A stretch of DNA of 64,000 bases from Thermodesulfobacteriota bacterium. Lineage in GTDB: Bacteria > Desulfobacterota_D > UBA1144 > Nemesobacterales > UBA2774. The first letter of the stretch is position 1. Each line of letters begins with the position of its first letter. This document shows, piece by piece, positions 1-31,667 of this stretch. The position numbers and the translations under genes were made by a program. The stretch lies in assembly GCA_965216785.1 (NCBI GenBank), contig OZ244197.1:864001-928000 (forward strand), read 5' to 3'. Below the pieces are notes generated by a model that saw nothing but the letters and a program-made list of their open reading frames with translations, was not told the DNA's origin and did not search any database.

Positions 1-442
1 CCATCTTGCTCTCATTCATTTGTTCCCTTATAGTGTCACGTTCCAATTCAGCAAATGATGCTAAAATTGTTGCCATCGCTTTTCCAGTATTTGTAGTTGG
101 GTCGAAGTTTTCTTTTATACTTACAATTGATATTCCGTGCTCTTGAAGTTCATGAAATAGGTTCAAGTATTCTCTAGTATTGCGTGCAAATCTTGATAAC
201 CTTGTGAATATTACAACTTCAAACTTTCCTTGCTTAGCATCCTCAATCAATTTTTTAAAATCAGTTCGATGCTCAATTTTAGCACCTGACATACCTTCGT
301 CAGAATATATTTTTTTCAATTCCCAACCTTTGTTCTTAGCAAATTCAGTTATCTGCTCTCTTTGTGTTGAAAGACTTTCACCTTCTTTTACTTGTTTGCT
401 AGTGGATACCCTTGTATAGCCAACTACTTTCTTTATATGCAT
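1..442 (-). CDS. Serine recombinase, probably a large serine integrase (5' part; runs off the window edge; not in the ORF track)
   Basis: Manual translation: MHIKKVVGYTRVSTSKQVKEGESLSTQ...YSDEGMSG...FTRLSRFARN...ENFDPTTNTGKAMATILASFAELERDTIREQM. It has the catalytic YxRVS and SRxAR motifs and an AGAGGA RBS. Confidence 0.93.
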   Translation of the reverse strand, partial: MHIKKVVGYTRVSTSKQVKEGESLSTQREQITEFAKNKGWELKKIYSDEGMSGAKIEHRTDFKKLIEDAKQGKFEVVIFTRLSRFARNTREYLNLFHELQEHGISIVSIKENFDPTTNTGKAMATILASFAELERDTIREQMNESKM

Positions 443-853
443 ATAATATCTTCCTCTATTGCATGGGATTGGTTTTACTCACCAAAAATAAAAAACCAAT
501 CGACCTGACAATGCTACAATTAGCAGCACCTATCTTATTATACCGATGTGGTGGACTTTTTACGGGGAGTTATTTTTCGGGAAAATCTTGAAAGTTTATA
601 ATACTTCAATAATAACAAGCAGATACAAGGGCAAAAATTTTTTCTGGATTCCCATTTTCGGATGGCAATATGTCAGCATACAACACTATTTGATATAAAA
701 TGTAGATTTTCTATATAATAATGAAGTATTCAAGAGACAAAACAAGAAAAAGTTATCCCTTCATTAGTAAAATAAAGCTCAGACGTAAATCTATGCTTAG
801 TCGCTAAGGATTAGTATTTATTATTTGCAGTAACTTTTAATAGGGCATAACGC

Positions 854-880
854 TTTACGGTCGGATCACAATACCACTCA
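854..880 (+). repeat. Direct repeat copy A (degenerate), consensus CTTACGTTATGcycACAATACCACTCA
   Basis: tttacggtcggatcacaataccactca has the same spacing as copies B-D and shares 15 nt exactly with D. Confidence 0.7.
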
Positions 881-1002
881 ATTCTATCCTTTTTTGCTAG
901 CGTTAAGAATATATCTATAAAAACACAAACTGATGATACTCAGAAGGCGAATATGTAGTCGAAGATATCCGCCTCCTTTATGCTTAACTATAAATACTAC
1001 TA

Positions 1003-2436
1003 TCACCTGACTTTTTCGACATCTGGAAGTGTCCAGGTTTTATCGAACAGCGCCTTCTCAGGCCCATAAAGACGGAAGATTAAAAAGAAGTCCTCGCCTG
1101 TAGGTAGCCAGTTTGATTCCATTCCCTCAGGCGCCTTTGGTCCAAAATATATATCAATTGTCCCATCCTCATTCTGCTTTAGATCAGCTTTTTGGACTGA
1201 ACCTAGTCCGACCTTGCTTGCATTATTAATGAAGCCTTTGGTTTTCATGCTATAGACGATAGCTGACCAGAATTGGGCTGCAGGCACATCTTTTGGGACC
1301 TTAAGACGATAGAGAGAAGATCCGTCAAACAGCTCGCCTGATTTGTCTCGCAGACCCATTAGATAGAAACTCCCTTTTCCTAAACGTTTTGGCAAGAAGG
1401 TAGCCCAGAAGTATATCCCTCCTGCCCGCTTATCCAGTAACAACTCGTCCTTAGTTACCATCGGAAACCCTGCTTCAACTTGTGCTTTAGGGAAATTTGG
1501 TGCTTGCCATTTAACATCTGACCACCAATTTACAAGTGATTTGCCAGGTGTTGTGAAGTAACTCTGCATCAAATCATAACCAAGTGTGATAGACTGCTCC
1601 AGAGCTTTTTTTGTTTCTTCATCAGGCTTAAACTCTGTACCTTTTTGAATTCCAATAGTTGGCAGCATACCCATCATTACCAGATCTTTCTCCTGAACTG
1701 GTTCTTCGTTAACAACAGTGGCTAGGTCCTCAAAGAAGCTGATATCGTATTGTGGGAGAGTGTTCCATGTTTTGGGAAATGCATTTATATAGCGGGTTGG
1801 CTCAGGATTCTCCGCCTCTGATAGTGGATAGGCCTTAAGTTTCTTGGCATATGTTACAGCCTCTTCAAGTGTACCTCCGTTAACTGCAACTGGGCGAAGT
1901 CCAACATACAAATTGAATGTCTTGGGCCTTTGGACCAGATATCCTTCAGGCACCTCTCCCTCGTAATCCGGAGGTAAAAAGAGATACTTGCCGCCTTTAC
2001 CCTTATCATCTCCTTCAGGTCCGACATCTGTCACAGGCACTTGCCATGCATCAATGACGCTTCCGAAATAGATAACCTTTTCTGATGCGGGTGGGACCTC
2101 AAGTATTACAGGGCCGTCCTTGGTGTTTAACACCGAAATTACATAGGGCACGTCGTTATTAGCAGTGAGAAATCCGTGTCTCGAAACCATAGGCTCAGAG
2201 AAATAAATGATATCGTTGAATGTAAAACCTAGCTGAGCTTCTGCGCTTTTTCGTAAATCCATCATGCTTACAGCCGGCATACCCCAGATAACAGCCTGTG
2301 TGCCGCGCTGGACAGCTTGCTTGTGCTCAAGCGATTCATCAGCTCCGTTTTGTGCCTGAGCCCGTCCCAGCTCCACAACTAGCATTATTGCTAAAATCAA
2401 AGTGAGACATGTAACCATCTGTGCTAATTTTTTCAT
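1003..2436 (-). CDS. Secreted DUF1254/DUF1214 protein
   Basis: Signal peptide; motifs TANNDVPY, GKGGKYLFLPP, FWSAIVY, NEDGTIDIYFGP and FRLYGP. Confidence 0.9.
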   Translation of the reverse strand: MKKLAQMVTCLTLILAIMLVVELGRAQAQNGADESLEHKQAVQRGTQAVIWGMPAVSMMDLRKSAEAQLGFTFNDIIYFSEPMVSRHGFLTANNDVPYVISVLNTKDGPVILEVPPASEKVIYFGSVIDAWQVPVTDVGPEGDDKGKGGKYLFLPPDYEGEVPEGYLVQRPKTFNLYVGLRPVAVNGGTLEEAVTYAKKLKAYPLSEAENPEPTRYINAFPKTWNTLPQYDISFFEDLATVVNEEPVQEKDLVMMGMLPTIGIQKGTEFKPDEETKKALEQSITLGYDLMQSYFTTPGKSLVNWWSDVKWQAPNFPKAQVEAGFPMVTKDELLLDKRAGGIYFWATFLPKRLGKGSFYLMGLRDKSGELFDGSSLYRLKVPKDVPAAQFWSAIVYSMKTKGFINNASKVGLGSVQKADLKQNEDGTIDIYFGPKAPEGMESNWLPTGEDFFLIFRLYGPEKALFDKTWTLPDVEKVR

Positions 2437-2654
2437 TGTTGCTCTCCATGTATAAATTGATAAGCGAAATCATACCTAAAAGTTTAGTCTGATACTATTT
2501 AATATTATAAGTTTCGTGGTCTTAAGAAGAAGTAAAGCAACTGATTAAATGCAAATTCAATTTTATGACATAAAGGCGAAATTGAGCTCCATTTTTTTAC
2601 TATCTGCTGGTAATAACCAAATAAAGACAGCAACTTAAACTAGAGTGCATCACC

Positions 2655-2681
2655 CTTACGTTATGCCCACAATACCACTCT
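2655..2681 (+). repeat. Direct repeat copy B
   Basis: cttacgttatgcccacaataccactct; similarity to copy C extends over 2633-2696. Confidence 0.85.
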
Positions 2682-2734
2682 TTTATACACCTTCTTAACT
2701 AGCATTAAGAACACATATAGACACGGAAACCGTA

Positions 2735-2757
2735 CTTGACAAAAGAGGTATAGTACA
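2735..2757 (+). mobile_element. Isolated degenerate IS3-family right inverted repeat
   Basis: cttgacaaaagaggtatagtaca versus cttgacaaaaggggtgcagtaca at 5268-5290. Confidence 0.55.
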
Positions 2758-2973
2758 GAAATACAAACTGAACAATTGGGTTGTATATTACAACAGGAAT
2801 TACCTTCACTCGGCTCTTGGGTTCCGCACAACAGTTCAGGCAGAAGTGGAGTATCAAAAGAATACAGATGGAAATCTGTTAAATGCTGCTTGACAAAGAA
2901 GTTCATTATTATTTGGTATTTTTCCCGACTGTATTATATTTCTTCTTTATATCTCGTTTTAAAGGAGGAGTAA

Positions 2974-3885
2974 ATGAGACTAGTCCTATTGATAATATCT
3001 TCATTATTACTGTCTGTGGGTGTTTCAAATGCTCAGGATGTGGAATTGTTTAGTGTCGCAAGGAATGAATGTGTTGAGGGAATCCCCCCACTTGGTAGTT
3101 CACTTTTTAGAGTTGACCCGGATACTGCAGAAACTGAAATTATAGGTCCTATCGGTTTTGGTGGTGTAACTGGTTTGGCATTTCTGCGGGGACGTATACT
3201 AGTGGGTAGCTCTAGTGGAGGAGTTGATCCTAGAACCGCCACTCTTATAAGGATTAATCCTGAAACTGGGCAAGGGTCAATAATAGGTGTAATAGGTAAC
3301 GAATCTGTAGATGGAGAATGCGGTAGAGCTCCTGATCTAACTTATGAAGCAGCTACTAACACTTTATTTGCGTCAGGTGATGTTTGTGATGGGGGTGACT
3401 CTTTACAAACCGTAAATCCAATCACAGGTCAGGGTACAGTTATTGGAAACTTTGACGGTGGCATTGGCAGTCCGGGAAATGGACTTGCAATAAGTGATAC
3501 CGGTGTACTATTCCATTCAGGTAGTGGTGTACTGTCCAACATTAATCGCAATACTGGTGAGGGGACATTTATTGCCAATCTTACGCTTGTTGGCAGGGTT
3601 TTTGTAAATGCACTTGCTTTCCATCCGGTTACTGGAGAGCTTTACGGAACTACAGTGGATTTATCAGATCCTCCAACTGAAAGATCATCTGCTCTTGTAA
3701 AGATAAACACAGAAACAGGTGTAACTACTGTAGTCGGGGACTTACCTAACTGTTCCGATGGTCTGATATTTTTTCAACAACCCGAACCCATCCCGACCCT
3801 ATCCGAATGGGGACTTATAGCCATGGCGGGTGTGCTGGGAATAATAGGTCTACTAGCTCTCCGAAGAAGAAAGGTAACAGCTTAA
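2974..3885 (+). CDS. Secreted beta-propeller-like protein with IPTL-CTERM sorting signal
   Basis: Signal peptide; repeated INPETGxG motifs; C-terminal IPTLSEWGLIAMAGVLGIIGLLALRRRK. Confidence 0.88.
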   Translation: MRLVLLIISSLLLSVGVSNAQDVELFSVARNECVEGIPPLGSSLFRVDPDTAETEIIGPIGFGGVTGLAFLRGRILVGSSSGGVDPRTATLIRINPETGQGSIIGVIGNESVDGECGRAPDLTYEAATNTLFASGDVCDGGDSLQTVNPITGQGTVIGNFDGGIGSPGNGLAISDTGVLFHSGSGVLSNINRNTGEGTFIANLTLVGRVFVNALAFHPVTGELYGTTVDLSDPPTERSSALVKINTETGVTTVVGDLPNCSDGLIFFQQPEPIPTLSEWGLIAMAGVLGIIGLLALRRRKVTA

Positions 3886-4005
3886 TCAGAGACTAACTGA
3901 TACAGTAAATTAATACACTAAGGGGAGCTTTTATACTGCTCCCCATTAAGAAGTAAGTATAGTTAAGTTGGTAAATTATCCGTAATACACAGTGGGAGAG
4001 CAGCC

Positions 4006-4179
4006 ATGAAACGAAGAAGATGGGACTCTAAAACCAAGACTAAGATAGTACTCGAAGGTTTATCTGGCAGACCCGTAACAGAGATTTGCAACGAGTACGG
4101 AATACATCAGAACCAATACTACCTCTGGCGTGACAAGTTTTTATCTGATGCTCATAACGCTCCTCCTTATTTCTTTTAA
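4006..4179 (+). pseudogene. IS3-family transposase OrfA fragment (HTH)
   Basis: MKRRRWDSKTKTKIVLEGLSGRPVTEICNEYGIHQNQYYLWRDKFL; truncated after about 50 codons, with no OrfB. Confidence 0.85.
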
Positions 4180-4187
4180 TAATGGTG

Positions 4188-5123
4188 CTATTCAAATTCC
4201 ACCGGAGATTGTGGTTTGGTATTTACGCGAAGTTTAAATATGTCAGGGCGTGAATAATGGCCTACCACGTCAAGTGCTCGTTTTGCCTTAGCTGCACTGT
4301 TACAGTCAACATCATAATAGATAACCCCTTCTTCTTTTCGCATAGGGCCAACAACTATATCACCACCCGGGCCGATAACAATAGAATCACCTTGGTTTAT
4401 CCATTCGTTATTATCAGGGTATAGCGTGGATTTCTCAGGGAAATCATTTGGGATATCTTTGCCCTTCATAACATTACCACAACCCACTACCCAGCAACAG
4501 CCTTCTCGTGCGATGTGTTGTAAGGTTCCAATCCACGCATCTCCACTATCATATGTTGGTGCAATATATATCTCTACACCCTGTGAATAGAGTGCGTACC
4601 TTGCCAATGGCATGTAATTTTCCCAGCATATTAGTGTTCCTATTCGTCCAACAGGAGTATCAACAACTTTTAAACCAGAGGCATCACCAAACCCCCAAAT
4701 CATCCTTTCCGGATTGGTAGGCATCAATTTGCGATGCCTATTTAACAGTGACCCATCAGAGCCAATAACAATGGTAGTGTTATAAATAGTTGCACGACTT
4801 AGGTTACTGTCCCTTTCGTCCATACCACATACAACTGTTACATTACATTTTCGAGCAGCTTCATAGAGGACTGATAAGTCGTCACTTTTCAAACTAACGG
4901 CATTTTCCAAGAGCCTAGAGTATAGTTCTTCTGATAATTTCCCATCTTTCCCCGGCCTTAAACGCCATATCCACGCTGGATAACCAGGGATAAAAGCTTC
5001 TGTGAATATTACAAGTTCAGCGCCTTTAGAGGCCGCCTCATTAACTGAATTAACAGCACTAGCTATTGTTTCTTCCTTATTCAAGAATACAGGTGCTTTT
5101 TGAACAATTGCTAACCTAGCCAT
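4188..5123 (-). CDS. Nitrilase (carbon-nitrogen hydrolase, branch 1)
   Basis: E-K-C triad in FTEAFIPGYP, HRKLMPT and LICWENYMPL; C-terminal GHYSRPD. Confidence 0.95.
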   Translation of the reverse strand: MARLAIVQKAPVFLNKEETIASAVNSVNEAASKGAELVIFTEAFIPGYPAWIWRLRPGKDGKLSEELYSRLLENAVSLKSDDLSVLYEAARKCNVTVVCGMDERDSNLSRATIYNTTIVIGSDGSLLNRHRKLMPTNPERMIWGFGDASGLKVVDTPVGRIGTLICWENYMPLARYALYSQGVEIYIAPTYDSGDAWIGTLQHIAREGCCWVVGCGNVMKGKDIPNDFPEKSTLYPDNNEWINQGDSIVIGPGGDIVVGPMRKEEGVIYYDVDCNSAAKAKRALDVVGHYSRPDIFKLRVNTKPQSPVEFE

Positions 5124-5407
5124 TGTTGATACTCTCCTCCCTTTTTAATCTAAGTCTGGTTAATATACATAACCCTGTTAATGTTTGTACAGTATGGGCA
5201 TTGTCTCTTACCCCTTGGGGGGCATCGGCTCCCTTTTGTGTTTGCAACCATTCCACCTTAAACCAAGCTTGACAAAAGGGGTGCAGTACAGTTACTTGCA
5301 CCCCTTTAACGGGACTATAGAATAAGTTAGATTTTTAACAGGAAAAGGAACGATAGCACTCTCATTAAAGTCAACAATCACTGGGACTTAATATAGAGCC
5401 GAACAGG

Positions 5408-5434
5408 CTTACGTTATGTTTACAAAACCACTCA
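5408..5434 (+). repeat. Direct repeat copy C
   Basis: cttacgttatgtttacaaaaccactca; extended similarity to copy B over 5386-5449. Confidence 0.85.
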
Positions 5435-5542
5435 TTTTTACCCCTTCTTCTCCATTGTTCTGCTGCAGCTCTGAAATACTAAATGAGTTTCCTAGAGATC
5501 GTAGGTTCAGGTTTTTATCACTACAATTCAAATTAAGCGCTT

Positions 5543-5563
5543 TATACTGCTCCCCATTAAGAA
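5543..5563 (+). mobile_element. Isolated IS3-family left inverted repeat remnant
   Basis: tatactgctccccattaagaa is identical to 3932-3952. Confidence 0.7.
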
Positions 5564-5681
5564 TCTAGTAGGATTAAGATATTTAAAGAGTGCTTGACCG
5601 AAGAATAGCGGACAACTATTAGTTTCTTTCTACTTATAGTATAATAAAGCCCACAATTTCTTATTTAGGAGGACAGAGCAG

Positions 5682-6743
5682 ATGGCAAATAAGCTGAGCA
5701 AAATACCTGGTTGTAAGGTTATCTGTAAACTGCTGGTTGTTATCGCTGTGCTTGCGGGAACCTTGCTGGCGACCCAGGGTGCGATGGCAGCCGTAAAGAA
5801 GGTCTACTGGACTGACCGTAACAACGGGACGCTTTCGGTAACGGATGTTATCAACGGCCAGACCCAAGTCTTGGCGCAAAACTTTTCACGTCTCCAGGAC
5901 GTCGATCTTGACACTAACACGGGCATTCTGTATTTCGCCGATTGGGGACCCGTTGGTCCGCCTGGAAACGAGGGTTCGATAAATCGGGTTAACAGTGACG
6001 GGACCGGTCTTGCAACCGTGTTTAATACGGGGGACGCGGTGCACCAGCTAGCGTTGGATCAGGCCTATCAACTCATCTACTTCACAAGGGCGGTAAGCTA
6101 CGATGGCCGCGAGGTTTCCGTCGTGGATTATACTGGCGGTAACTACACGATCTTACTCACAGGAGCTGGTGGCGGGCCGGGATGGTTCTACTCGGGTCTT
6201 GCCGTAGACCTCGGGAACAACTTGCTCTACTGGGGCGACCCCGGCGTCATGTCAGGTCCCCCGGACGGTTCAGTGAACAGGATGACCACCGCCGGGGTGG
6301 CGCAAACTCAGCTAACACCCCACGTCGACGGGCGAGGTCGGGGCTACGCGCTCGATCCGGTTACCCAGACAATCTTCTTAACCTCACACGATTTCCAGTC
6401 GCCTGGGACAGGGGGGGCGCTCTTCTCCTATGACATTGGGAACAACATTGAGACGCTTCTCATAAACGATCCCAACACCGGTTACTGGGACATCGAAATC
6501 GACCCGATCAGTCAGCGAATCTGGTGGACCGATTACGGGCGCGGGGAGATCCGAAGTGCCAGGTTCGACGGCTCTGATGTGCGGGTTGAGCTGTCCAACT
6601 TGACGAACCCCTACGGACTGGCACTGGAGCTTATCCAGCCTACCCCCACCCCCACTTTATCCGAATGGGGACTTATAGCCATGGCAGGAGTTTTGGGGAT
6701 AATAGGCTTACTGGCTCTACGAAAAAGAAAGGTAACAGCTTAA
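5682..6743 (+). CDS. Secreted YWTD-type beta-propeller protein with IPTL-CTERM sorting signal
   Basis: VYWTD, LYFAD, LYWGD and IWWTD repeats; C-terminal PTLSEWGLIAMAGVLGIIGLLALRKRK; GC-rich body. Confidence 0.88.
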   Translation: MANKLSKIPGCKVICKLLVVIAVLAGTLLATQGAMAAVKKVYWTDRNNGTLSVTDVINGQTQVLAQNFSRLQDVDLDTNTGILYFADWGPVGPPGNEGSINRVNSDGTGLATVFNTGDAVHQLALDQAYQLIYFTRAVSYDGREVSVVDYTGGNYTILLTGAGGGPGWFYSGLAVDLGNNLLYWGDPGVMSGPPDGSVNRMTTAGVAQTQLTPHVDGRGRGYALDPVTQTIFLTSHDFQSPGTGGALFSYDIGNNIETLLINDPNTGYWDIEIDPISQRIWWTDYGRGEIRSARFDGSDVRVELSNLTNPYGLALELIQPTPTPTLSEWGLIAMAGVLGIIGLLALRKRKVTA

Positions 6744-6780
6744 CAAGAGACTAACTGTAACAGTAAAATTGAATACCAAA

Positions 6781-6803
6781 GGGAGCTACGGCTCCCCTTT
6801 TTT
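6781..6803 (+). terminator. Rho-independent terminator
   Basis: gggagc-tacg-gctccc followed by a T-run. Confidence 0.85.
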
Positions 6804-6862
6804 GTTCCAAAATACTCAATAACTGTAGCTTATTAGAACACCCGGATTAAGTCCACATCCCG

Positions 6863-6889
6863 CTTACGTTATGCTCACAATACCACTCA
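6863..6889 (+). repeat. Direct repeat copy D, next to the 3' end of the tyrosine recombinase
   Basis: cttacgttatgctcacaataccactca, 45 bp from the recombinase stop codon. Confidence 0.85.
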
Positions 6890-6934
6890 TTATTACAAAT
6901 TCAATTGTAACTATTGGATATTTTGCTTTATTTT

Positions 6935-7561
6935 TTACTCTCTGATCTTATTAGCCAGATTACCATTTTCTGATGGCAAAACATCAGCATAAAGTACAGT
7001 CATGCTTATTTTGCTATGTCCAAGTTGTTTCTGAACATACCTTAAATTGTTCGTAGCATGAAGCAAAAAGGTAGCATAAGTGTGACGAGCACAGTGGATT
7101 GAATAATGTGAAGGTAAATGAGATTCTTCGATTGCCCTCTTGAATGATTTCATAAGAGTTATTGCTGCGGAGTGTTTTCCATTTCTACCCATAAATAACG
7201 GACTGTCATTATCAACTTCTTCGCCCATTGTTTTCTTTTTCCAAGCTATAAATCTCTTTAAATGGTTTACAAGTTCTTTGTCCAAATAAACATCCCTTTT
7301 TTTACCTCTCTTTCCATTTCGTACAATTAAATATGGATCTTTAGTTGTTAATTCAATATCACCGATTTTTAAGTTAGCAATCTCTGCTACACGCAATCCG
7401 CTAAAAAGTGCTAAATCCACTAACATGTAGCGTTTTATCCATGTTTCACGACCGTGTAATAAATCCAACTCCGACTTATCTTTACAGGTTTTTAACAGTT
7501 TTGATCTTTGATCAGAGTCTAAAATCTTTTCTCTATGGATGTTGTAAGTAGTAGAATTCAT
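6935..7561 (-). CDS. Small tyrosine recombinase (catalytic domain only, 208 aa)
   Basis: GLRVAE (R), GK (K), HCARH (HxxR), LGH and TVLY (Y); no N-terminal core-binding domain. Confidence 0.93.
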   Translation of the reverse strand: MNSTTYNIHREKILDSDQRSKLLKTCKDKSELDLLHGRETWIKRYMLVDLALFSGLRVAEIANLKIGDIELTTKDPYLIVRNGKRGKKRDVYLDKELVNHLKRFIAWKKKTMGEEVDNDSPLFMGRNGKHSAAITLMKSFKRAIEESHLPSHYSIHCARHTYATFLLHATNNLRYVQKQLGHSKISMTVLYADVLPSENGNLANKIRE

Positions 7562-7747
7562 GTTGTCGCCCTATATTTTATAGCCTATGGGTAATACTAT
7601 ATAGTCTAATACGTTTAGGACAACGGTATTTTATAGGTTATTTATGTTCTCTATAAAATATTCTGAATTCTAGATATTAAACAATACCAAAGGAAGAGAT
7701 TAAATCTACTTGGGCAGGAAATATGCAAGAAACATTTTCGACGTACA

Positions 7748-12674: not shown

Positions 12675-12753
12675 AGCAGTATTACTACACCAAAAACGAC
12701 CATATCTTATAGATTATTTATATTCTCTATAAAATTTTCTGTATTCTGGATTT

Positions 12754-21853: not shown

Positions 21854-24800
21854 TCAAGTTGTGTTAGTATTGTTGCTGAAATTTTGTTTAAGTTGGTTAA
21901 TAGTTGATTTGCGTATTTCAGCCATATTCATTTTTAAATTGAAACCATATTCCAGTGCAATCAATATTTCAACAGTCATAAGTGAGTCCATACCTAATTC
22001 GAATAATGGAGTATCCATATCAACCTGACTTTCATTTTGAAATCCAAAAATATGTAGTATTACATTTACTAAGTCTGTAGAAGTCTTTTTAGAGTTGTTA
22101 GCAAATTCTTTGTGACGGTGAAGGTCTAATGTAAAACTTGTTACAACTGTTTCGTCTTGACTTAGTAATATGTCAAGATTTTCAATACAGGAATGTATAC
22201 TCTGCAAACCGAGCAAAGTATTGGAAAGATTTACATAAGCATTTTTCTGAATGAAACCTACATCACCAATAGGTCCCCACTGTATTGAGATTGCAGGTAG
22301 ACCATTTCTCTTCCTTTGTTCACATAATCTATCCATAGCTGCATTGGCAAATGCATAGTTAGTTTGCCCTTCATTACCTTCGGTGGCTACTATTGATGAA
22401 AAGCAAACGAATTGATCAAGTTTTTTACAATACTCCGAGCTGACTTTACTAAGATTTTCAGCTCCATTCAATTTCACTGAACAGACTTTTTCAAAGGTGT
22501 GTTTATCCTGATTGAGAAATAGTGCATCGGACATGACCATCGCTAAATGAAATATCCCACCAATTGGCGCAATTTTTTCACATTGCTTAATAAGATGCAA
22601 AGTTGATCTATAATTTGTTACATTTCTTTTACTTATCGTTACATTAGCTCCGAGATTTTGCATTTTATCTATTTTTGAGGCCTGGTATCCATTTTTGATA
22701 CCTCTTCTACTTGTTAAAACAAGATTTTTAGCACCTCGAAGAACTAACCAGTATGCTAATTCAAGCCCGAACCCACCTAGTCCACCAGTTATTATATATA
22801 TCTTCTTCGAGTCACATGAGAATTTTGGTTTAGCGAGTACCTTGATTTTGTCTCTATTATTCTCATCTCGAATGCGAATGAGTACTTTCCCAATATGCTT
22901 TGCTCTAGCCATATACCGAAAGGCATCTTCTACCTCATCATAATCAAAAATAGTTCTATCTAATGGTTTTATTACTCCACTTTTAATACCTTTATCGAAC
23001 AGTTGTAACAGTCTTTTTGTTTCATCAGGATTGTGCAAGATAGTACTACTCAGATCTACTCCATGGATGCTTATATCTTTCAAAAATATAGACATGCCCA
23101 AGGGGGTATCCTGAATCCTATCAAATTTCCCAATTTCCACAAAATGCCCATTCATAGCAAGAACTCTCAGACTTGCAAGCATAAGCTCACCTGATAGTGA
23201 GTTAAGAACAATATCAACTCCATGACCATTTGTTTGTTGAAAAACCAACTTTTCAAATGATGTATCTCTACTATAACCTATATGATCATCGTCTATTTGA
23301 GGGAATTTTTTCTTGATATATTTCCTTTTTTCTTCGCTACCAACTGTTGTAAATACTTCACATTGCATTGATAGAGCTAGATTGATTGCGGCAATACCAA
23401 TACCACCTGACCCAGAATGGATTAGTACTTTTTGACCTTGTTTCATACCAGCCCTTATGATAAGTCCCAGATATACAGTAAGATAGACAAGTGGAACAGT
23501 TGCTGCTTCTTCCAAAGTCCAGGATTCTGGGACCTTCCAGGCCCGGTCCACCTTTCGTTGCAATATAACTTTTGTTGAAAGCGCTTTTACGGCAATACCC
23601 ATTACACGTTGACCATCACGATTTCGTATACCGGAGAATTCCATTCCTGGACAATCATGATATGTTCCACCTGACTCTGCTGGCAATTTTCCAGAAGCAA
23701 GCATAATGTCTTTAAAATTCAATGCGCAGTAGTTAACATCATAAACATCAGATTCATGACATAGATCTGGAGCACTTATCCATCTCATACTTGAAAAATC
23801 ACCTTTTGTCATGACCTGCATGTAGGCGCTATCGGTCTCGACCATATCTGTTTCGGGTAACTCCCTATATTGGTATGATCCCCATATACCGTTTTTGAAT
23901 ACATTTGTGGCTAAATCATGTTTTAGAACCTTGGATATCTGTCTTTTACTAACTTTATTAGAATCATCTACGAACAGACACCGAACCCTATCTCCGTTGG
24001 GTTCCTTGCGAAGACTTCTTACTAATCCGGTCAAACCAGGTGCAGAAGCTGAATTACCCATTAACCACAAACGTTTGTTTGTATTATCATTAAGAGCATT
24101 ATAATAATCTTGACATGTTTTTAAGTCATCTTTATTAAACTGCAATCTCTGATGGATAGATTTTTTATTATATGTTTTACGACAAAGGATCATTTTTTGT
24201 TTATAAGTCTCTTTAATAGCTACTATATCAAAACCGCTATCTTGTAGTAGATTGTTCCAATTTTCTTGAGATAAATTTAAACCCACATCCTGTCCATCAA
24301 CATCCCAGTAATTCCAGAATTTTTTTCGTAAGCCCCAAGTACAAAGAATTGATGCTAGATTGGCATTTTCAATATTTAACAAAAGAAAACCGCCATCTTT
24401 AAGACTCTTTCTAATATTTTGTAATGCTTGCATTAGTTCACTATTAGTGTTAAATGTTTGTCCGGTTATTACTAGATCATAAGTCTTTTCATGGTGAGTT
24501 CTTGTGAAATCCCAAATCTGATAATCCGTTACCATTGAAAAATTACTAAGTTCATTTTTTATCCTATCAAAGTAGGAATCATCAAAATCTGTGATTACAT
24601 AACGATCATTAATAGATCTAAGATTAGTTAAAACCTTCCGGCTAAATAAACCTGTTACTGGACCTACTTCACAAATATGAATAGAATTTTGAGAATTGAG
24701 ATTTTCTTGAACTATGTTCAGCATCTCACGAATAAAATAATCACTATGAAATAAAGTGTCTGCTAAATCTCGATTGTACAGATCATCATATTCCTCAAAT

Positions 24801-27800
24801 CCAGCAATATGCTTTTCTGTATTTCTAATTAATTTTTCAGGCTTTTTGTACAAATATTTGATAAATCTAAGATTTACACTATTAGGGTGCTTTAAGTATT
24901 TATTAAGACTTTTTTTATTCGGGATTTTCTTATCATAACCTCTTAGCATATCCTTTATTCTCAAAAAATGTGAAGGTATATCTTTGTCACAAGTTTTAAG
25001 GTGTCTGTAAAAATGTAAGAATTGAGTTATAGCATAAGAATTTTCAATCTCATTATATACCTCGATGTTACGTCCTTCCCGCAATTTTTCGTAATATGGC
25101 GAGAAGTGCATTGAGGCTAAAATTGGTGGTTTCTCAATTCTCTCGGAAAGTGAAAGACCTACAAAACCTTCCATAACAAATGAAGAACAATATTTTGTAA
25201 AAAGATGTTGGTCGAAATGAATTTCAACAAACGACTCGTTGTAATTATGTTTTAGTGGATCAATGGTTACGCGTCTATAATAGGTAGGTAAAACAGTAGA
25301 TCGATTATTCACAAGAAGTATGTTTGTTTGTGCCATACTGTCGAGAAATGTAATCCAATTTCCATCCCATTTTACTTTTGCCCAATTGCCGTTTGTTGAG
25401 GATTCAGATATTACTTGAAACTTTGGACCATAGTCATAGCCACGTAATCTAAATTCTTGATAGATATCATCTTTAGAAAGTATGATTTCATATTCATTTC
25501 TGTACTTTTGCTCAACAGTATCAGGCCATCGAATGTCATCTCCAATTTTTAATTTCCCACTCGCCAGCAAAGTGTCTTTTTCTTTAACCTCAAACATCTG
25601 GCTTTCTTTAAGATAACTAACATTGAATTCAAATTTCTCGTCACTACGAATCATTGATGCTCTATGTAGTTTTACATCTTCAAACTGTACAGGAAGTGTT
25701 TCTTGAGGAACCTGTAGATTAAGAGATGCGGCTTTCCAAGTTAAATATAAATATCCCACGGCCGGGAAAACTATTTTTCCATTTAGTCTATGATCACTCA
25801 AAAAATTGTACTCTTCTTCCTTTACATCTATATCAAATGTAAATTGCACCCGTTCTTCAGCAATCTTCGGGACAGGCCATGTTTTGTGATGATCCCATGC
25901 CATTAGATTTGGTATTCTAGGCAGACTTTTAAAAGATGGTTTGTTATTGACAAGATTTTCATAATTCATATCAAGCCCTGACACATAACAATGACTAAGT
26001 CCATCAAATAGGTTAACAATGTTGTTTGAATTCCGCTGCATAAAACTAATGTGAGTGATATTATTTAAACTCTCAATTAGTATCCCTCGAAATAAGGCAT
26101 GAGCGCCGATCTCAATTACAATAGATCCATTTGGTATGTATTTTATTCCTTCGTGAAAATATACGGGATTAAGCAAGTTATTTTTGAAGTAGTTAGCAGA
26201 ACAATACCTAGCACGGTGCCATTCACGTTCAGGACGAGAAGTGCAAATCCATCGCTTACTGCGTTCTAGAGGTTTTGGTATGATTTCACCGAGTTTAGAA
26301 TGAAACTTTTCTGCTGCTGGACTAACCATATGAGAATGGAAAGCTTTTCTTGTTGATCTTATTACTTTGGCCTCTATATTCTTTGTTTCTAATTTCTTCA
26401 CAAACCTGGAAATTGCTTTTTTCTCTCCTGATACAGTTACATTGTTTTCACCATTATGACATGCTACAACTACATCTTTTGGGCATATTTTTTCAGTTTC
26501 GAATAAATTTAGACCTACATATGCCATGGCCCCTGCTTTAACTTTGGTTTCAAGCATAGACCTTCCACGCCAGTAACTAACTCGCATTGCTTGTTCCCGG
26601 GTCAATTTTCCATCTGCATAGGCACATGCTATCTCTCCTACACTGTGTCCTATTAAAAAGTCTGGTTTTAGTCCGGCTAAATTTAAAATATCAACTAGAG
26701 CAATTTGAATCGCCGTCAAACAAGGAAATGTATTCACTGTATTTTCAAATGCTCTTTCGTCACAATCCGATAAAAGTTCTATTAAATTTAACTCTGTATG
26801 CTCAAGAGCATTGTTGCATAGATTAATTGATCGCCTGAATACTGGCACATTAATTAAGTCTGAAGCCATACCTGTCCATTGCGCACCTATACCATTAAAT
26901 ACATAACAAAGGCTTGGCTTCTTTAATGGCGTTTTACCTCTAATAATTCTGCACTGGTTGTTTTCTGTTCTATAAATTACTGCTCGATTGTTCATTTTAT
27001 TCAATTGAGTAGAAGCTAGGGGTTGTAAAAATGACGCTATATCATTGCGGCATCTAATATTCTCTAGATATTCTAAAAATGTGTCAAGCCCATCCTCAGT
27101 CCGAAAGGAGCAGGGGGCGATTGAATATCCTTGTGTTAATTCTGGGATTTCTTTATGAGATTTAGCCTGCCCTTCTAGAACAAGATGAGCGTTTGCACCA
27201 CCAAACCCAAATGAACTGATTCCTACCAGTCCACCCTTCCATGGAGTTCTTTCTAAAACCACTTTTAATCTGCCCTCTAAAATTCCTTTCATTTCAGGGT
27301 TTGGCTCTGAAAAGTTGATATTTGGTGGGATTTCTCCATGATACATGGCAAGTAGTATCTTTAATACACTGGCGAGGCCCGCAGCACCTTCCGTGTGTCC
27401 AATATTCGATTTTACAGAACCAATAAGTAAAGGATTCTTTTTATTTCGATTTTGACCTAAAACTTCATCTATAGCAGCTACTTCTTGAGGATCTCCTGCT
27501 GGTGTACCTGTTCCATGAGCCTCATAATATTTTATTTTGGTAGTATCAATACCAATGTCATTATATGCTTTGCGAAGGAGAGACACTTGAGCTTGTTTGT
27601 TAGGAAAAGTTACACCTTCTCTATTGTAGCCATCGTTGTTTGTCACACAATTGAGTATGCGAGAATAATTTCTTCGTGCTAAATGTTCACGTGTTATTAA
27701 AGTAGCTACAATTCCATCTGATCGCACATAACCGTCTGCAGATTTATCAAATACTTTGCTCTCACCTTCTGGTGAAAGCATCTGAAATTTCGTCATCGAA

Positions 27801-28399
27801 ATAGAAAGGTTCGGGGTAAATATCAGATTAGCTCCACCAATTAGTGCAAAATCACACCTTCCTGTGATAATTGCATCTATACCAGCACTTAGAGCAAATA
27901 TTGAAGATGAACATGCTGTGTCTATGGTCATACTGGGGCCATTGAAATCGAAGAAATATGAAATACGGTTAGAAAGCATAGCAAGCGATATACCTGCAGC
28001 CTCATACCCAGTAAGACGATTAGCGTCAGCTACATAGGTACCAGCTGCTTCACTACCCATGCATCCCATAAAAACACCTGTATTTGAGTTTCGTAATTCC
28101 AGAGGGTTATAACCTGCATCTAGAATAGCTTCATAACAAACCTCTAGCATTAAACGAGTCATAGGATCGAGTTTTTCAGCTTGTCTTGCACTTATTTCAA
28201 AAAATTGGGAATCAAAGTAATCAGGGGTTTTTACTTTTCCGAAACGCTTAGGTGTGGAAAATATACCATTTGGCCAGCGTTCTCTCTCAACTGAAGTCAT
28301 ATCCTTAGCATTGATCAGATTTTCCCAAAATTCATCAGGACTATCTGATTCTGGAAGTCGACAAGATATACCGCCGAATACTATATTTTCTTTACTCAT
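21854..28399 (-). CDS. Animal-FAS-like type I synthase, KS-MAT-DH-pseudoMT-ER-KR-ACP, no thioesterase
   Basis: KS DTACSS, HGTGT and NIGH; AT GHSVG and AFHS; DH HRLNGKIVFP and WITFLD; ER IHSGSGGIG; KR GGLGGFG and GQTNY; ACP GMDSL at the C-terminus. Confidence 0.93.
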   Translation of the reverse strand: MSKENIVFGGISCRLPESDSPDEFWENLINAKDMTSVERERWPNGIFSTPKRFGKVKTPDYFDSQFFEISARQAEKLDPMTRLMLEVCYEAILDAGYNPLELRNSNTGVFMGCMGSEAAGTYVADANRLTGYEAAGISLAMLSNRISYFFDFNGPSMTIDTACSSSIFALSAGIDAIITGRCDFALIGGANLIFTPNLSISMTKFQMLSPEGESKVFDKSADGYVRSDGIVATLITREHLARRNYSRILNCVTNNDGYNREGVTFPNKQAQVSLLRKAYNDIGIDTTKIKYYEAHGTGTPAGDPQEVAAIDEVLGQNRNKKNPLLIGSVKSNIGHTEGAAGLASVLKILLAMYHGEIPPNINFSEPNPEMKGILEGRLKVVLERTPWKGGLVGISSFGFGGANAHLVLEGQAKSHKEIPELTQGYSIAPCSFRTEDGLDTFLEYLENIRCRNDIASFLQPLASTQLNKMNNRAVIYRTENNQCRIIRGKTPLKKPSLCYVFNGIGAQWTGMASDLINVPVFRRSINLCNNALEHTELNLIELLSDCDERAFENTVNTFPCLTAIQIALVDILNLAGLKPDFLIGHSVGEIACAYADGKLTREQAMRVSYWRGRSMLETKVKAGAMAYVGLNLFETEKICPKDVVVACHNGENNVTVSGEKKAISRFVKKLETKNIEAKVIRSTRKAFHSHMVSPAAEKFHSKLGEIIPKPLERSKRWICTSRPEREWHRARYCSANYFKNNLLNPVYFHEGIKYIPNGSIVIEIGAHALFRGILIESLNNITHISFMQRNSNNIVNLFDGLSHCYVSGLDMNYENLVNNKPSFKSLPRIPNLMAWDHHKTWPVPKIAEERVQFTFDIDVKEEEYNFLSDHRLNGKIVFPAVGYLYLTWKAASLNLQVPQETLPVQFEDVKLHRASMIRSDEKFEFNVSYLKESQMFEVKEKDTLLASGKLKIGDDIRWPDTVEQKYRNEYEIILSKDDIYQEFRLRGYDYGPKFQVISESSTNGNWAKVKWDGNWITFLDSMAQTNILLVNNRSTVLPTYYRRVTIDPLKHNYNESFVEIHFDQHLFTKYCSSFVMEGFVGLSLSERIEKPPILASMHFSPYYEKLREGRNIEVYNEIENSYAITQFLHFYRHLKTCDKDIPSHFLRIKDMLRGYDKKIPNKKSLNKYLKHPNSVNLRFIKYLYKKPEKLIRNTEKHIAGFEEYDDLYNRDLADTLFHSDYFIREMLNIVQENLNSQNSIHICEVGPVTGLFSRKVLTNLRSINDRYVITDFDDSYFDRIKNELSNFSMVTDYQIWDFTRTHHEKTYDLVITGQTFNTNSELMQALQNIRKSLKDGGFLLLNIENANLASILCTWGLRKKFWNYWDVDGQDVGLNLSQENWNNLLQDSGFDIVAIKETYKQKMILCRKTYNKKSIHQRLQFNKDDLKTCQDYYNALNDNTNKRLWLMGNSASAPGLTGLVRSLRKEPNGDRVRCLFVDDSNKVSKRQISKVLKHDLATNVFKNGIWGSYQYRELPETDMVETDSAYMQVMTKGDFSSMRWISAPDLCHESDVYDVNYCALNFKDIMLASGKLPAESGGTYHDCPGMEFSGIRNRDGQRVMGIAVKALSTKVILQRKVDRAWKVPESWTLEEAATVPLVYLTVYLGLIIRAGMKQGQKVLIHSGSGGIGIAAINLALSMQCEVFTTVGSEEKRKYIKKKFPQIDDDHIGYSRDTSFEKLVFQQTNGHGVDIVLNSLSGELMLASLRVLAMNGHFVEIGKFDRIQDTPLGMSIFLKDISIHGVDLSSTILHNPDETKRLLQLFDKGIKSGVIKPLDRTIFDYDEVEDAFRYMARAKHIGKVLIRIRDENNRDKIKVLAKPKFSCDSKKIYIITGGLGGFGLELAYWLVLRGAKNLVLTSRRGIKNGYQASKIDKMQNLGANVTISKRNVTNYRSTLHLIKQCEKIAPIGGIFHLAMVMSDALFLNQDKHTFEKVCSVKLNGAENLSKVSSEYCKKLDQFVCFSSIVATEGNEGQTNYAFANAAMDRLCEQRKRNGLPAISIQWGPIGDVGFIQKNAYVNLSNTLLGLQSIHSCIENLDILLSQDETVVTSFTLDLHRHKEFANNSKKTSTDLVNVILHIFGFQNESQVDMDTPLFELGMDSLMTVEILIALEYGFNLKMNMAEIRKSTINQLKQNFSNNTNTT

Positions 28400-30116: not shown

Positions 30117-30830
30117 TTATTCATGAGTCTCGATACTACGGGCCTTACCCTCTCGTTCATTTCGAGGGATGAACATATCAATATATACATCTTTGTAGAT
30201 ATGCTTCGTCAAATATTGTATAGCTCCCCTAGTGGGGTCATAAATTTTTATCACTGCGTTTCCGTTAACAATACGATCAATAAAAGGTCCATTTTTCCCA
30301 ATGCGTTGTCCGTTACACTCCCAGAGCTTTGCCATATACTTCCTGCTAAGTTCTAATAACCCTTCTGCACCTAGTAGAGCATGAATGTGAAGTGTTCCCC
30401 TCTTCTGATACTCGTACACAACCGCATAACGTATACCACGCCCCCTCAGTTTATAGCGCCAGCCAAATAGACTACAGTTAAGAGACCCAAGCCACTTATG
30501 GAATCTCTGCTCAGCTTTCATAAGATCTATATCTTCTATAAACGTCAAGGTAACAAACATGTCATAATCATAGCGAGAGATAAATTCTTGCCAGTCCATT
30601 TGCAGGTCTTTATTAAACCAGCCTGTCTTTAGAGGTTTATACTCCCTTTTGTTTTGCTCACTTTCAATTTGAGAATTTATGATATGATGAGAGGATTTAT
30701 CATAAGCTAAACAATTATCTCTACCCTTTATTCTTCTTCTTATTGATTGTTCTTCTCTTAATTTCCGAAAAATGCTGTTCTGACCATCCACAAGTATCTT
30801 GTATGCAAGTTTAGAAATCTTCTTCTTCAT
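30117..30830 (-). CDS. Rolling-circle replication initiator-like HUH endonuclease
   Basis: Motif I FVTLTF, motif II EYQKRGTLHIHAL, motif III YLTK; GAGGAGG RBS. Confidence 0.85.
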   Translation of the reverse strand: MKKKISKLAYKILVDGQNSIFRKLREEQSIRRRIKGRDNCLAYDKSSHHIINSQIESEQNKREYKPLKTGWFNKDLQMDWQEFISRYDYDMFVTLTFIEDIDLMKAEQRFHKWLGSLNCSLFGWRYKLRGRGIRYAVVYEYQKRGTLHIHALLGAEGLLELSRKYMAKLWECNGQRIGKNGPFIDRIVNGNAVIKIYDPTRGAIQYLTKHIYKDVYIDMFIPRNEREGKARSIETHE

Positions 30831-30947: not shown

Positions 30948-31667
30948 TTACATCAGAATAGTAGGCAGTCTCCGCGCGAGCATGGTCTTTCCCGCTCCTG
31001 GGGAACCTATCATGAGTAAGTTATGCCCACCGCTCGCGGCAACCTCAAGAGAGCGTTTTACGTGCTCCTGGCCTTTTACCTCGCGAAAATCGACCTGGTG
31101 CTCCCTTGCTTCCTTGAATACCGATTTTATGTCTACTTTGGTAGGTTTTATCTCTTTCTTATCCGCAAAGAACTCCACCACGTCCTGAAGCGAATCAACT
31201 CCCAGCACATCAATACCGCTTACCACCGCTGCTTCCTCGGCGTTTTCCCTGGGGAGAATGATGCCCTTTAGCTTTAGGTCCCTTGTGCAGATTGAAGTCG
31301 GAAGAGCGCCTTTGATCGGTTTAACCTCACCGTCCAGTGAGAGCTCGCCCAGGATTATATAGTCTTTTAGCTTTTTGTGATCGACAAGACCCATTACGGT
31401 AAGGATGCCGATTGATATTGGCAGGTCGAATGCGGAGCCCTCTTTTCTTATGTCCGCAGGGGCCAGGTTTACCGTGATTCTTCTGTATGGGAACTCATAG
31501 CCGCAGTTCTTGATCGCGGCGCGCACCCGCTCCTTGCTCTCTTTCACGGCCCCTTCGGGCAGGCCAACTGTATTAAAAGCCGGAAACCCTAGCGCTATAT
31601 CCACTTCCACTTCCACGAGATAGGCGTCAACTCCCAGCACTGCGCTGCTCAGAACTTTAGCTATCAT
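30948..31667 (-). pseudogene. comM: ComM/YifB Mg-chelatase-like ATPase, 5' half, interrupted by the island
   Basis: VGLPEGAVKESKERV, NLAPADIRKEGSAFDLP, GELSLDG and GHNLLMIGSPGAGKTMLARRLPTIL, then a stop at 239 aa. The family is about 500 aa. Confidence 0.93.

Follow-up and report, generated by a model that had tools for sequence, protein, structure and literature searches.

Stacks of gene cassettes that keep recombination sites and carry no recombinase of their own have been described in several bacterial groups. In staphylococci, the large serine recombinases (LSRs) CcrAB and CcrC of tandem staphylococcal cassette chromosome (SCC) and SCC-like elements excise neighbors bounded by attachment (att) sites, singly and in combination, including outside SCCmec, as described in the available sections of PMC11470126. 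Cis-mobilizable elements (CIMEs) and integrative and mobilizable elements (IMEs) can accrete in tandem, the former having lost the integration genes, kept the att sites and been stacked by later site-specific integration, and IMEs with a serine recombinase have cores of 2 bp and interrupt genes that the host can spare (both from part of PMC5704250). Finally, the ssrA islands of Dehalococcoides (DsiB) are tandem, with a serine recombinase of ~540 amino acids (aa), and 15 of them lack an integration module, according to an excerpt of PMC3146451. Here, we analyzed an integron-like array of gene units separated by direct repeats in a member of Candidatus Dadabacteria, the lineage label used here for the host and its relatives. 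The window, that is, the whole analyzed stretch of 64,000 nucleotides (contig OZ244197.1, positions 864,001 to 928,000), belongs to a 3.12-Mb genome in one contig, rated 92% complete and hereafter called G000; other G-numbers denote related genomes, L-numbers loci of relatives or metagenomes, and P-numbers database LSR proteins.

We consider it quite probable that the repeats are the att site of an LSR that splits comM, and that the array is a stack of small units joined head to tail before this LSR was lost. The original prediction, which was made from the letters of the window alone, had proposed an undescribed cassette system served by a neighboring minimal tyrosine recombinase. The cassette idea held insofar as the repeats are recombination-site junctions bounding cargo units, whereas the enzyme was the wrong one; the word undescribed was too strong, since tandem att-bounded cassettes without a recombinase have been published for other lineages. 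In the published literature we found no account of the repeat, the LSR family or the 208-aa tyrosine recombinase in Dadabacteria; the att tables of LSR surveys may list such sites.

The repeat module and its distribution

Four direct repeats, A to D, lie in the window at start-to-start distances of 1801, 2753 and 1455 bp, as had been predicted, and copy D ends 45 bp from the stop (6935) of the 208-aa reading frame at 6935-7561, which contains a Phage_integrase domain only. The repeat unit itself was real but larger than the 27-64 bp first claimed: it is a module of ~125 bp that extends ~45 bp to the left and ~80 bp to the right of a 2-bp core. In addition to the four copies, the array has a fifth, half copy (E0) of a different core type. 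The copies are as follows:

723-783, plus strand: E0, right half of the dprA-type (GA-core) variant of the module
810-930, plus strand: copy A, attP-type junction with CT core at 853-854
2611-2735, plus strand: copy B, full attP-type junction with CT core at 2655-2656
5364-5460, plus strand: copy C, attP-type junction with CT core at 5408-5409
6800-6900, plus strand: copy D, attP-type junction with CT core at 6863-6864

E0 was assigned by blastn and inspection, its match being the left end of an island that splits dprA (genome 3015.6 kb), with 85% identity over 67 bp; a model of the dprA-type half site, trained on three rows and out of register, gave no match in the genome at E<0.01. Copy A is the second member of a ~130-bp E0-A doublet, and doublets of this kind also occur in G009, G045 and L105. 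The divergence of A had been read as an age gradient, but A represents a separate subtype that is found in relatives too. A degenerate end resembling insertion sequences (ISs) of the IS3 family directly follows copy B at about 2735-2758, and the right arm of copy D diverges past about 30-55 bp.

A profile search of G000 (E<0.01) revealed 23 copies at 8 loci, and none in the reversed genome that served as control. All 26 pairs of neighboring copies less than 6 kb apart were co-oriented, so the inverted or alternating sites of shufflons and pdif modules were not found among them. Core-pattern matches were present in 11 of 33 genomes, namely G000, both genomes of its own genus, 8 of 10 of one sister genus and none of the 20 others, and the motif was restricted to variable regions of two genera plus G000. 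By eye, six of the eight loci lay on one sense relative to GC skew. Altogether, ~60 natural site variants with two core types were collected. The earlier remark that attC palindromes are lacking was borne out: no attC-like hairpin was detected (mean single-stranded DNA z about -0.3 on both strands), RNAalifold gave no consensus pair over 21 copies, and Rfam gave no match.

The repeat as attachment site of a large serine recombinase

The origin of the module could be traced through G003, in which comM is split at GGHNLL/MIG by an island with a 2-bp CT core at both junctions. At attL, comM (...GGCCATAACCTG) is followed by CT and then by the motif, while at attR the 3' end of an LSR gene (...AACACATCATA) is followed by CT and then by comM (CATGATAGG). 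The LSR (G003:C9) has ~530 aa with Resolvase, Recombinase and Zn-ribbon domains and lies at the end of the island. When the G003 motif half was aligned with copies A, B, C and D and scored against 300 shuffles per copy, z values of 7.1, 11.7, 10.0 and 6.7 were obtained, with 0/300 shuffles in each case.

Protein data gave a second line of evidence. The LSR family has 23 database relatives at E<=1e-60, most of which end near GIKNTSY and differ in their tails. In P0147, which shares a 90% cluster with P0123 (itself 78% identical to the G003 LSR), GIKNTSY runs directly into LRYVHNTTHF, the in-frame translation of the motif. When the C-terminal 130 aa of P0147 were compared by tblastn with G000 (3.1 Mb), the best match was copy D (12/16 aa) and the next five were other copies of the module. 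Moreover, the LSR frame is stopped in only 7 of 45 copies, vs 17 and 37 of 45 in the other two frames, and the variability of the copies peaks at third codon positions (0.65, 0.79 and 0.98 bits). Because of the G003 junctions, the P0147 read-through and the frame data, we conclude from these sequence comparisons that the motif is the right half of an attP within the 3' end of the LSR gene, and that the window copies hold both halves and so have the attP layout. The two forms of the protein in G003 and P0147 also suggest that integration shortens the LSR. The features that mark an LSR att site were thus found here: a cognate Resolvase/Recombinase/Zn-ribbon gene at the element end (G003:C9, and the read-through P0147) and a 2-bp core inside a disrupted host gene (CT in G003 comM, GA-containing in G000 dprA).

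The cognate recombinase was not found in G000. The family profile gave two distant LSRs there (E 5e-38 and 5e-15) and no cognate one, vs best matches of 1e-254 or better in G003 and G060, and the family is present in 2 of 120 genomes of the class. The 64 LSR loci on viral contigs were all distant (21-36% identity). In L068, the first part of the gene located upstream of the LSR in G003 is retained (69% over 88 aa); next come a terminator and then a full site, and the LSR is missing, a layout that suggests loss of the LSR gene body.

Two side observations concern the target range of this family. First, in L068 (1843-1875) and L110 (4041-4072) an intact comM is directly followed, past its stop codon, by a ~30-bp duplicate of the comM target, and in L110 this duplicate is occupied by a motif array; it is possibly a decoy or scar site. 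Second, P0140, which is related to the cognate LSR, continues in frame into a RadC C-terminal domain, which suggests that radC is a further target.

The dprA variant and exchange between sites

A variant with a different core was found at dprA of G000, which is split at QNK/EVF by an 18.5-kb island free of recombinase genes, with a half site at each end. At the left junction dprA is joined to the right half of the module with a GA-containing core, and at the right junction the left arm is joined to the remainder of dprA. Among the dprA loci of relatives, 19 of the 23 returned read through intact, and 4 were unreadable with the motif used. In L105, a full GA-type site lies inside the island, and the same left arm is joined to the 3' part of dprA.

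Relatives with different cargo and with breakpoints at the motif, whose absence would have counted against the original prediction, were found. The same host position holds different cores and cargo both upstream of a livK-like gene (G000 vs L098) and downstream of comM (L110 vs L068). Clean half-site junctions at the core were seen at comM (G003), at dprA (G000 and L105), upstream of the livK-like gene and downstream of comM. In a comparison of 62 sites (1891 pairs, an outer flank being counted as common at >=72%), 15 pairs had a common outer flank: 10 on one side only, 4 with the other side unmeasurable and 1 on both sides. For instance, L068/L110 and L093/L097 have right flanks of 0.97-0.98 and left flanks of 0.48-0.57.

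How the array may have formed

Based on these junctions, the LSR would join small cargo units head to tail at the 2-bp core, and its gene would later have been lost from G000, leaving the stack behind. Recombination between an incoming circle and the end of a resident unit, a non-canonical pairing like that reported for staphylococcal Ccr, might produce the full internal sites; alternatively, tandem elements might shed the LSR gene body and keep ~45 bp to the left and ~80 bp to the right of the core. The units would now be mobile only when a visiting element supplies the LSR. Since the cognate LSR was not found in G000, the array is likely an accreted cassette stack without its own recombinase that could move only in trans.

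Several observations weigh against this reading. Regarding the site itself, the left arm resembles that of G003 clearly only in copy D (z 5.5), weakly in B and C (6 and 9/300 shuffles) and not in A (186/300), and several copies are truncated at positions other than the core. Regarding the enzyme, G003 is the sole genome in which intact LSR, att and target occur together, the LSR copies of G060 (49-63% identical) have no motif match, and no LSR was found for the dprA-type variant. Regarding exchange, 3 of the 10 one-sided pairs are doublets or have a common terminator and are not independent events. No excision or circle joint was found at any copy in four contig sets from the single source sample, contigs being a form in which rare variants are dropped and rare circles are invisible; the five joints listed in these contigs were read as matches to paralogous loci elsewhere in the genome, none of them at the motif. 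In addition, a copy of the C-D gene (91% identical over 1205 bp, genome 2125102-2126303) is motif-free on both sides, and many right arms end in an IS3-like terminus, so that cargo also moves by other routes. Finally, canonical serine integrases do not recombine other att pairings, as stated in the accessible part of PMC3783163, and for this reason the internal attP-junction step is one that we infer.

Cargo of the array and IS3-like sequences

The cargo of each interval was as first described: a DUF1254/DUF1214 lipoprotein-like gene, two IPTL-CTERM genes and a nitrilase gene in an IS-ended insert. The units also differ in GC content (0.42, 0.41 and 0.50), as had been noted. The cargo features are:

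1003-2436, minus strand: 477-aa DUF1254/DUF1214 protein with an N-terminal signal-like stretch
2974-3885, plus strand: 303-aa IPTL-CTERM protein
about 3931-5290, no strand assigned: secondary insert with inverted IS3-family-like ends, containing a truncated orfA and a nitrilase gene
4006-4176: truncated orfA, inside the secondary insert
4188-5123, minus strand: 311-aa nitrilase gene, inside the secondary insert
5682-6743, plus strand: 353-aa IPTL-CTERM protein of the C-D interval

The rival that survives best is one that we regard as unlikely: the module came from an LSR att site but is now a passive repeat that spreads via IS3-like ends or by homologous recombination (through IPTL-CTERM tails or terminators), and the LSR did not build the array. 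By eye, ~13 of 41 copies terminate 85-105 bp downstream in an IS3-like terminus, and IS3 relics crowd the same spacers. The motif-free paralog of the C-D gene, the excess of IPTL-like motifs over modules in G000 (44 vs 23) and the in-frame stops borne by left arms also favor passive spread. Such spread fits poorly with the clean half-site junctions at the core in comM and dprA, upstream of the livK-like gene and downstream of comM, and with the uniform orientation of neighboring copies. Furthermore, the single full-length IS3 element in the genome (the IS relative at 1323501-1324640) is free of the module, and the motif was rejected as part of an IS3 element on this ground.

Some further IS3-related features were observed. 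IS3-family-like termini occur at window 3920-3945 and 5250-5330 and, scattered over variable spacers, at about 30 similar places in the genome, often within or beside the terminator hairpins of IPTL-CTERM genes. An internally deleted IS3-like element of 160 bp lies at genome 1282092-1282255.

The comM island hosting the array

The array occupies a variable cargo slot in a ~32-kb island that also splits comM. This island is unrelated to the LSR of the motif and bears the tyrosine recombinase and a second LSR. Its landmarks in the window are:

1-442, minus strand: 5' part of a 563-aa LSR gene, which extends beyond the window to genome 862751
30117-30830, minus strand: rolling-circle-type Rep (PF23343), at the far end of the island
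30948-31667, minus strand: 5' part of comM, which holds the GGHNLL/MIG codons, the primary target of the motif's LSR

The 563-aa LSR, which starts at 442 and beyond which the 3' part of comM lies, integrated the surrounding island into comM at LPTIL/PDM. It was rejected as the enzyme of the motif: it has ~25% identity to the cognate LSR, uses another position in comM and has unrelated att sequences. The primary GGHNLL target is unoccupied in G000.

Additional observations on these loci were made. Both comM and dprA (genome 2996748-2997110 and 3015579-3016385) are interrupted in G000; because both genes are disrupted, natural transformation is probably impaired. In G004 (L083/L084, G004:C5), about 28 kb separates the comM halves, one being on each strand, which implies an inversion following island insertion. 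The cargo of the comM island of G000 includes a 2181-aa gene resembling iterative type I polyketide or fatty acid synthases (KS-AT-DH-MT-ER-KR-ACP; window 21854-28399), adjoined by a 404-aa gene and a 778-aa membrane-protein-like gene. Elsewhere in G000, near a 612-aa LSR (G000:C1:1149200-1150508), an AT-rich PP-loop ATPase-like gene faces a GC-richer homolog in inverted orientation.

The tyrosine recombinase and other candidates

The neighbor of copy D and its associated features are:

6935-7561, minus strand: 208-aa tyrosine recombinase, catalytic domain only, with R57, K84, H156, R159, H182 and Y191 present
7627-7660, minus strand: AT-rich palindrome upstream of the tyrosine recombinase gene, found in 9 of 9 aligned homologs
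688-720, minus strand: distal palindrome, a degenerate copy of the upstream one
644-687, minus strand: remnant of the tyrosine recombinase gene, from its 3' end, with the region of the catalytic Tyr codon

In the original prediction, this enzyme acts on the motifs and adds new cassettes next to itself, as an integron would. We judge this very improbable, and accretion of units toward it was not supported. In its favor, the six catalytic residues are intact as far as the sequence can tell (each kept in 119-120 of 120 homologs), and pieces of the motif abut its features three times in G000: copy D lies at its 3' end, E0 adjoins the distal palindrome, and a second gene copy has a variant 154 bp upstream. 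Co-occurrence points the other way. Among eight Dadabacteria gene copies (three in G000, two in G018 and one each in G003, G004 and G024, the last cut by a contig end), the motif is near two, both in G000, and the fetched flanks of the other six are motif-free, which was not what the proposed flanking of recombinase homologs by the motif had foreseen. Likewise, no copy of the gene lies within 45 kb of 6 of the 8 motif loci, none of 19 metagenome motif loci (1-8 kb long) matches it, and G004 has the gene with no motif. In terms of site geometry, donor and target have only 2-3 bp in common at the exchange point, whereas tyrosine enzymes usually have a 6-8-bp overlap. The gene has its own unrelated palindrome, and the motif already has an explanation as an LSR att site. 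The tyrosine recombinase was rejected as the cognate enzyme because of co-occurrence and site geometry.

The enzyme is better viewed as a backbone gene of the island, a neighbor of the array and not its recombinase. The islands in comM of G004 and G018 have the same backbone of comM, LSR and tyrosine recombinase and are motif-free. In L003 the tyrosine recombinase is directly coupled to a related LSR, and it lies upstream of an LSR in L004, in G003 and at the second G000 copy. The claim that the enzyme is too short to be an IntI stands with regard to its length of 208 aa, and its TIGR02249 score of 79.5 bits is below the cut-off of 265. None of the subgroups in the available portion of PMC8138268 matched it.

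The palindromes suggest a site of its own for this enzyme, the distal one at 688-720 being a likely candidate. A second palindrome 2-11 kb downstream of the gene was present for 3/3 G000 copies and 3/3 G018 loci, and behind it there is usually a remnant of the 3' end of the gene; neither G003 nor G004 yielded such a palindrome. The further coordinates of these pairs are G000:C1 1152499-1152598 and 1291948-1292050, L002:17272, L009:17801 and L183:12412. Such pairs may represent a true tyrosine-linked capture system that uses the gene's own 3' end as landing site, but a deleted second gene copy would give the same appearance. As separate observations, the gene and its downstream palindrome bracket varied cargo at six loci (defense-like genes, secreted proteins and the present array), the family comprises at least 524 proteins, and an isolated upstream-type palindrome at window 12696-12747, beside IS3-like ends, has no gene behind it.

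The idea that the motif is a regulator-binding site, a promoter element or a structured RNA, which its intergenic position, often 150-320 bp upstream of a co-oriented gene, might suggest, can practically be dismissed, since the motif faces gene 3' ends elsewhere (including A and D), lies in frame inside the split comM and dprA, which refutes a regulatory origin, shows neither fold nor Rfam match, and occurs only in variable regions of two genera and of G000.

Two other candidates were rejected. The genome encodes XerC and XerD, but a dif-like pattern gave no more than a loose match to one copy and the sites do not alternate. The IS110 domain PF02371 is absent from G000, G001 and G002; in the other genus with the motif, one of 10 genomes has it.

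Implications and comparison with known systems

Reading the repeats as LSR att sites gives an orphan repeat family a specific enzyme and target that can be put to the test. It also shows that an array which looks like an integron and lies next to a tyrosine recombinase can be that of a serine recombinase missing from the genome. Should attP x attP-like or attP x attL/attR pairings be accepted by the LSR, the directionality of serine integrases would have a natural exception. The ~60 site variants with two core types could be used to map its recognition rules. The system would also offer a route for the turnover of secreted IPTL-CTERM and accessory genes in an uncultured lineage, in which comM and dprA have been knocked out repeatedly.

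Like SCC-like tandems, the array consists of att-bounded cassettes without their own recombinase. Ccr cassettes are about 17-26 kb long and located at rlmH with an adjacent ccr, whereas the units here measure 0.13-2.8 kb and involve another LSR family and comM as target; moreover, their internal junctions have an attP layout, arrays lie at several secondary sites, the primary comM target is empty and no cognate LSR was found in G000. The Ccr-rlmH combination was absent, the targets being comM and dprA and the N-terminal 147 aa of the window LSR scoring far below the Ccr cut-offs. As in CIMEs, a lost integrase with retained att was seen in the dprA island (both half sites, no recombinase gene) and in L068. 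CIMEs are described at the primary attB with attL and attR kept, whereas here most units hold a single gene, every junction has both attP arms, and the units are dispersed over eight loci; a tandem at the primary attB beside an autonomous element was not observed, given that GGHNLL of comM is unoccupied and that the array lies inside another island. The islands of Dehalococcoides lie at one locus, and their boundaries are 20-bp repeats of the end of the host's ssrA, whereas the repeat here is the LSR gene's own 3' end and host genes are disrupted. The array resembles integrons in that sites of uniform orientation separate units of one or two genes and the cargo varies. In contrast with integrons, there is no attC hairpin, the 2-bp core is of the double-strand serine type, and no IntI (~320 aa with its specific insertion) scored over the cut-off in the genome.

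The array is thus neither an SCC, having different targets, nor an integron. A broader view, which we offer only tentatively and hold to be somewhat doubtful, is that two genera of Dadabacteria possess an equivalent of the integron that is driven by a serine recombinase. In it, cassettes of one or two genes and empty ~125-bp units, bounded by full attP junctions, would be maintained by selection at many places in the chromosome, and a rare visiting LSR, whose C-terminal tail is cut off when it integrates, would excise and restack them in trans; the same arms would serve at least two core specificities (comM and dprA). What sets this system apart from those described is the combination of very small units, element-derived attP-type junctions, dispersal to secondary sites and two cores on the same arms.

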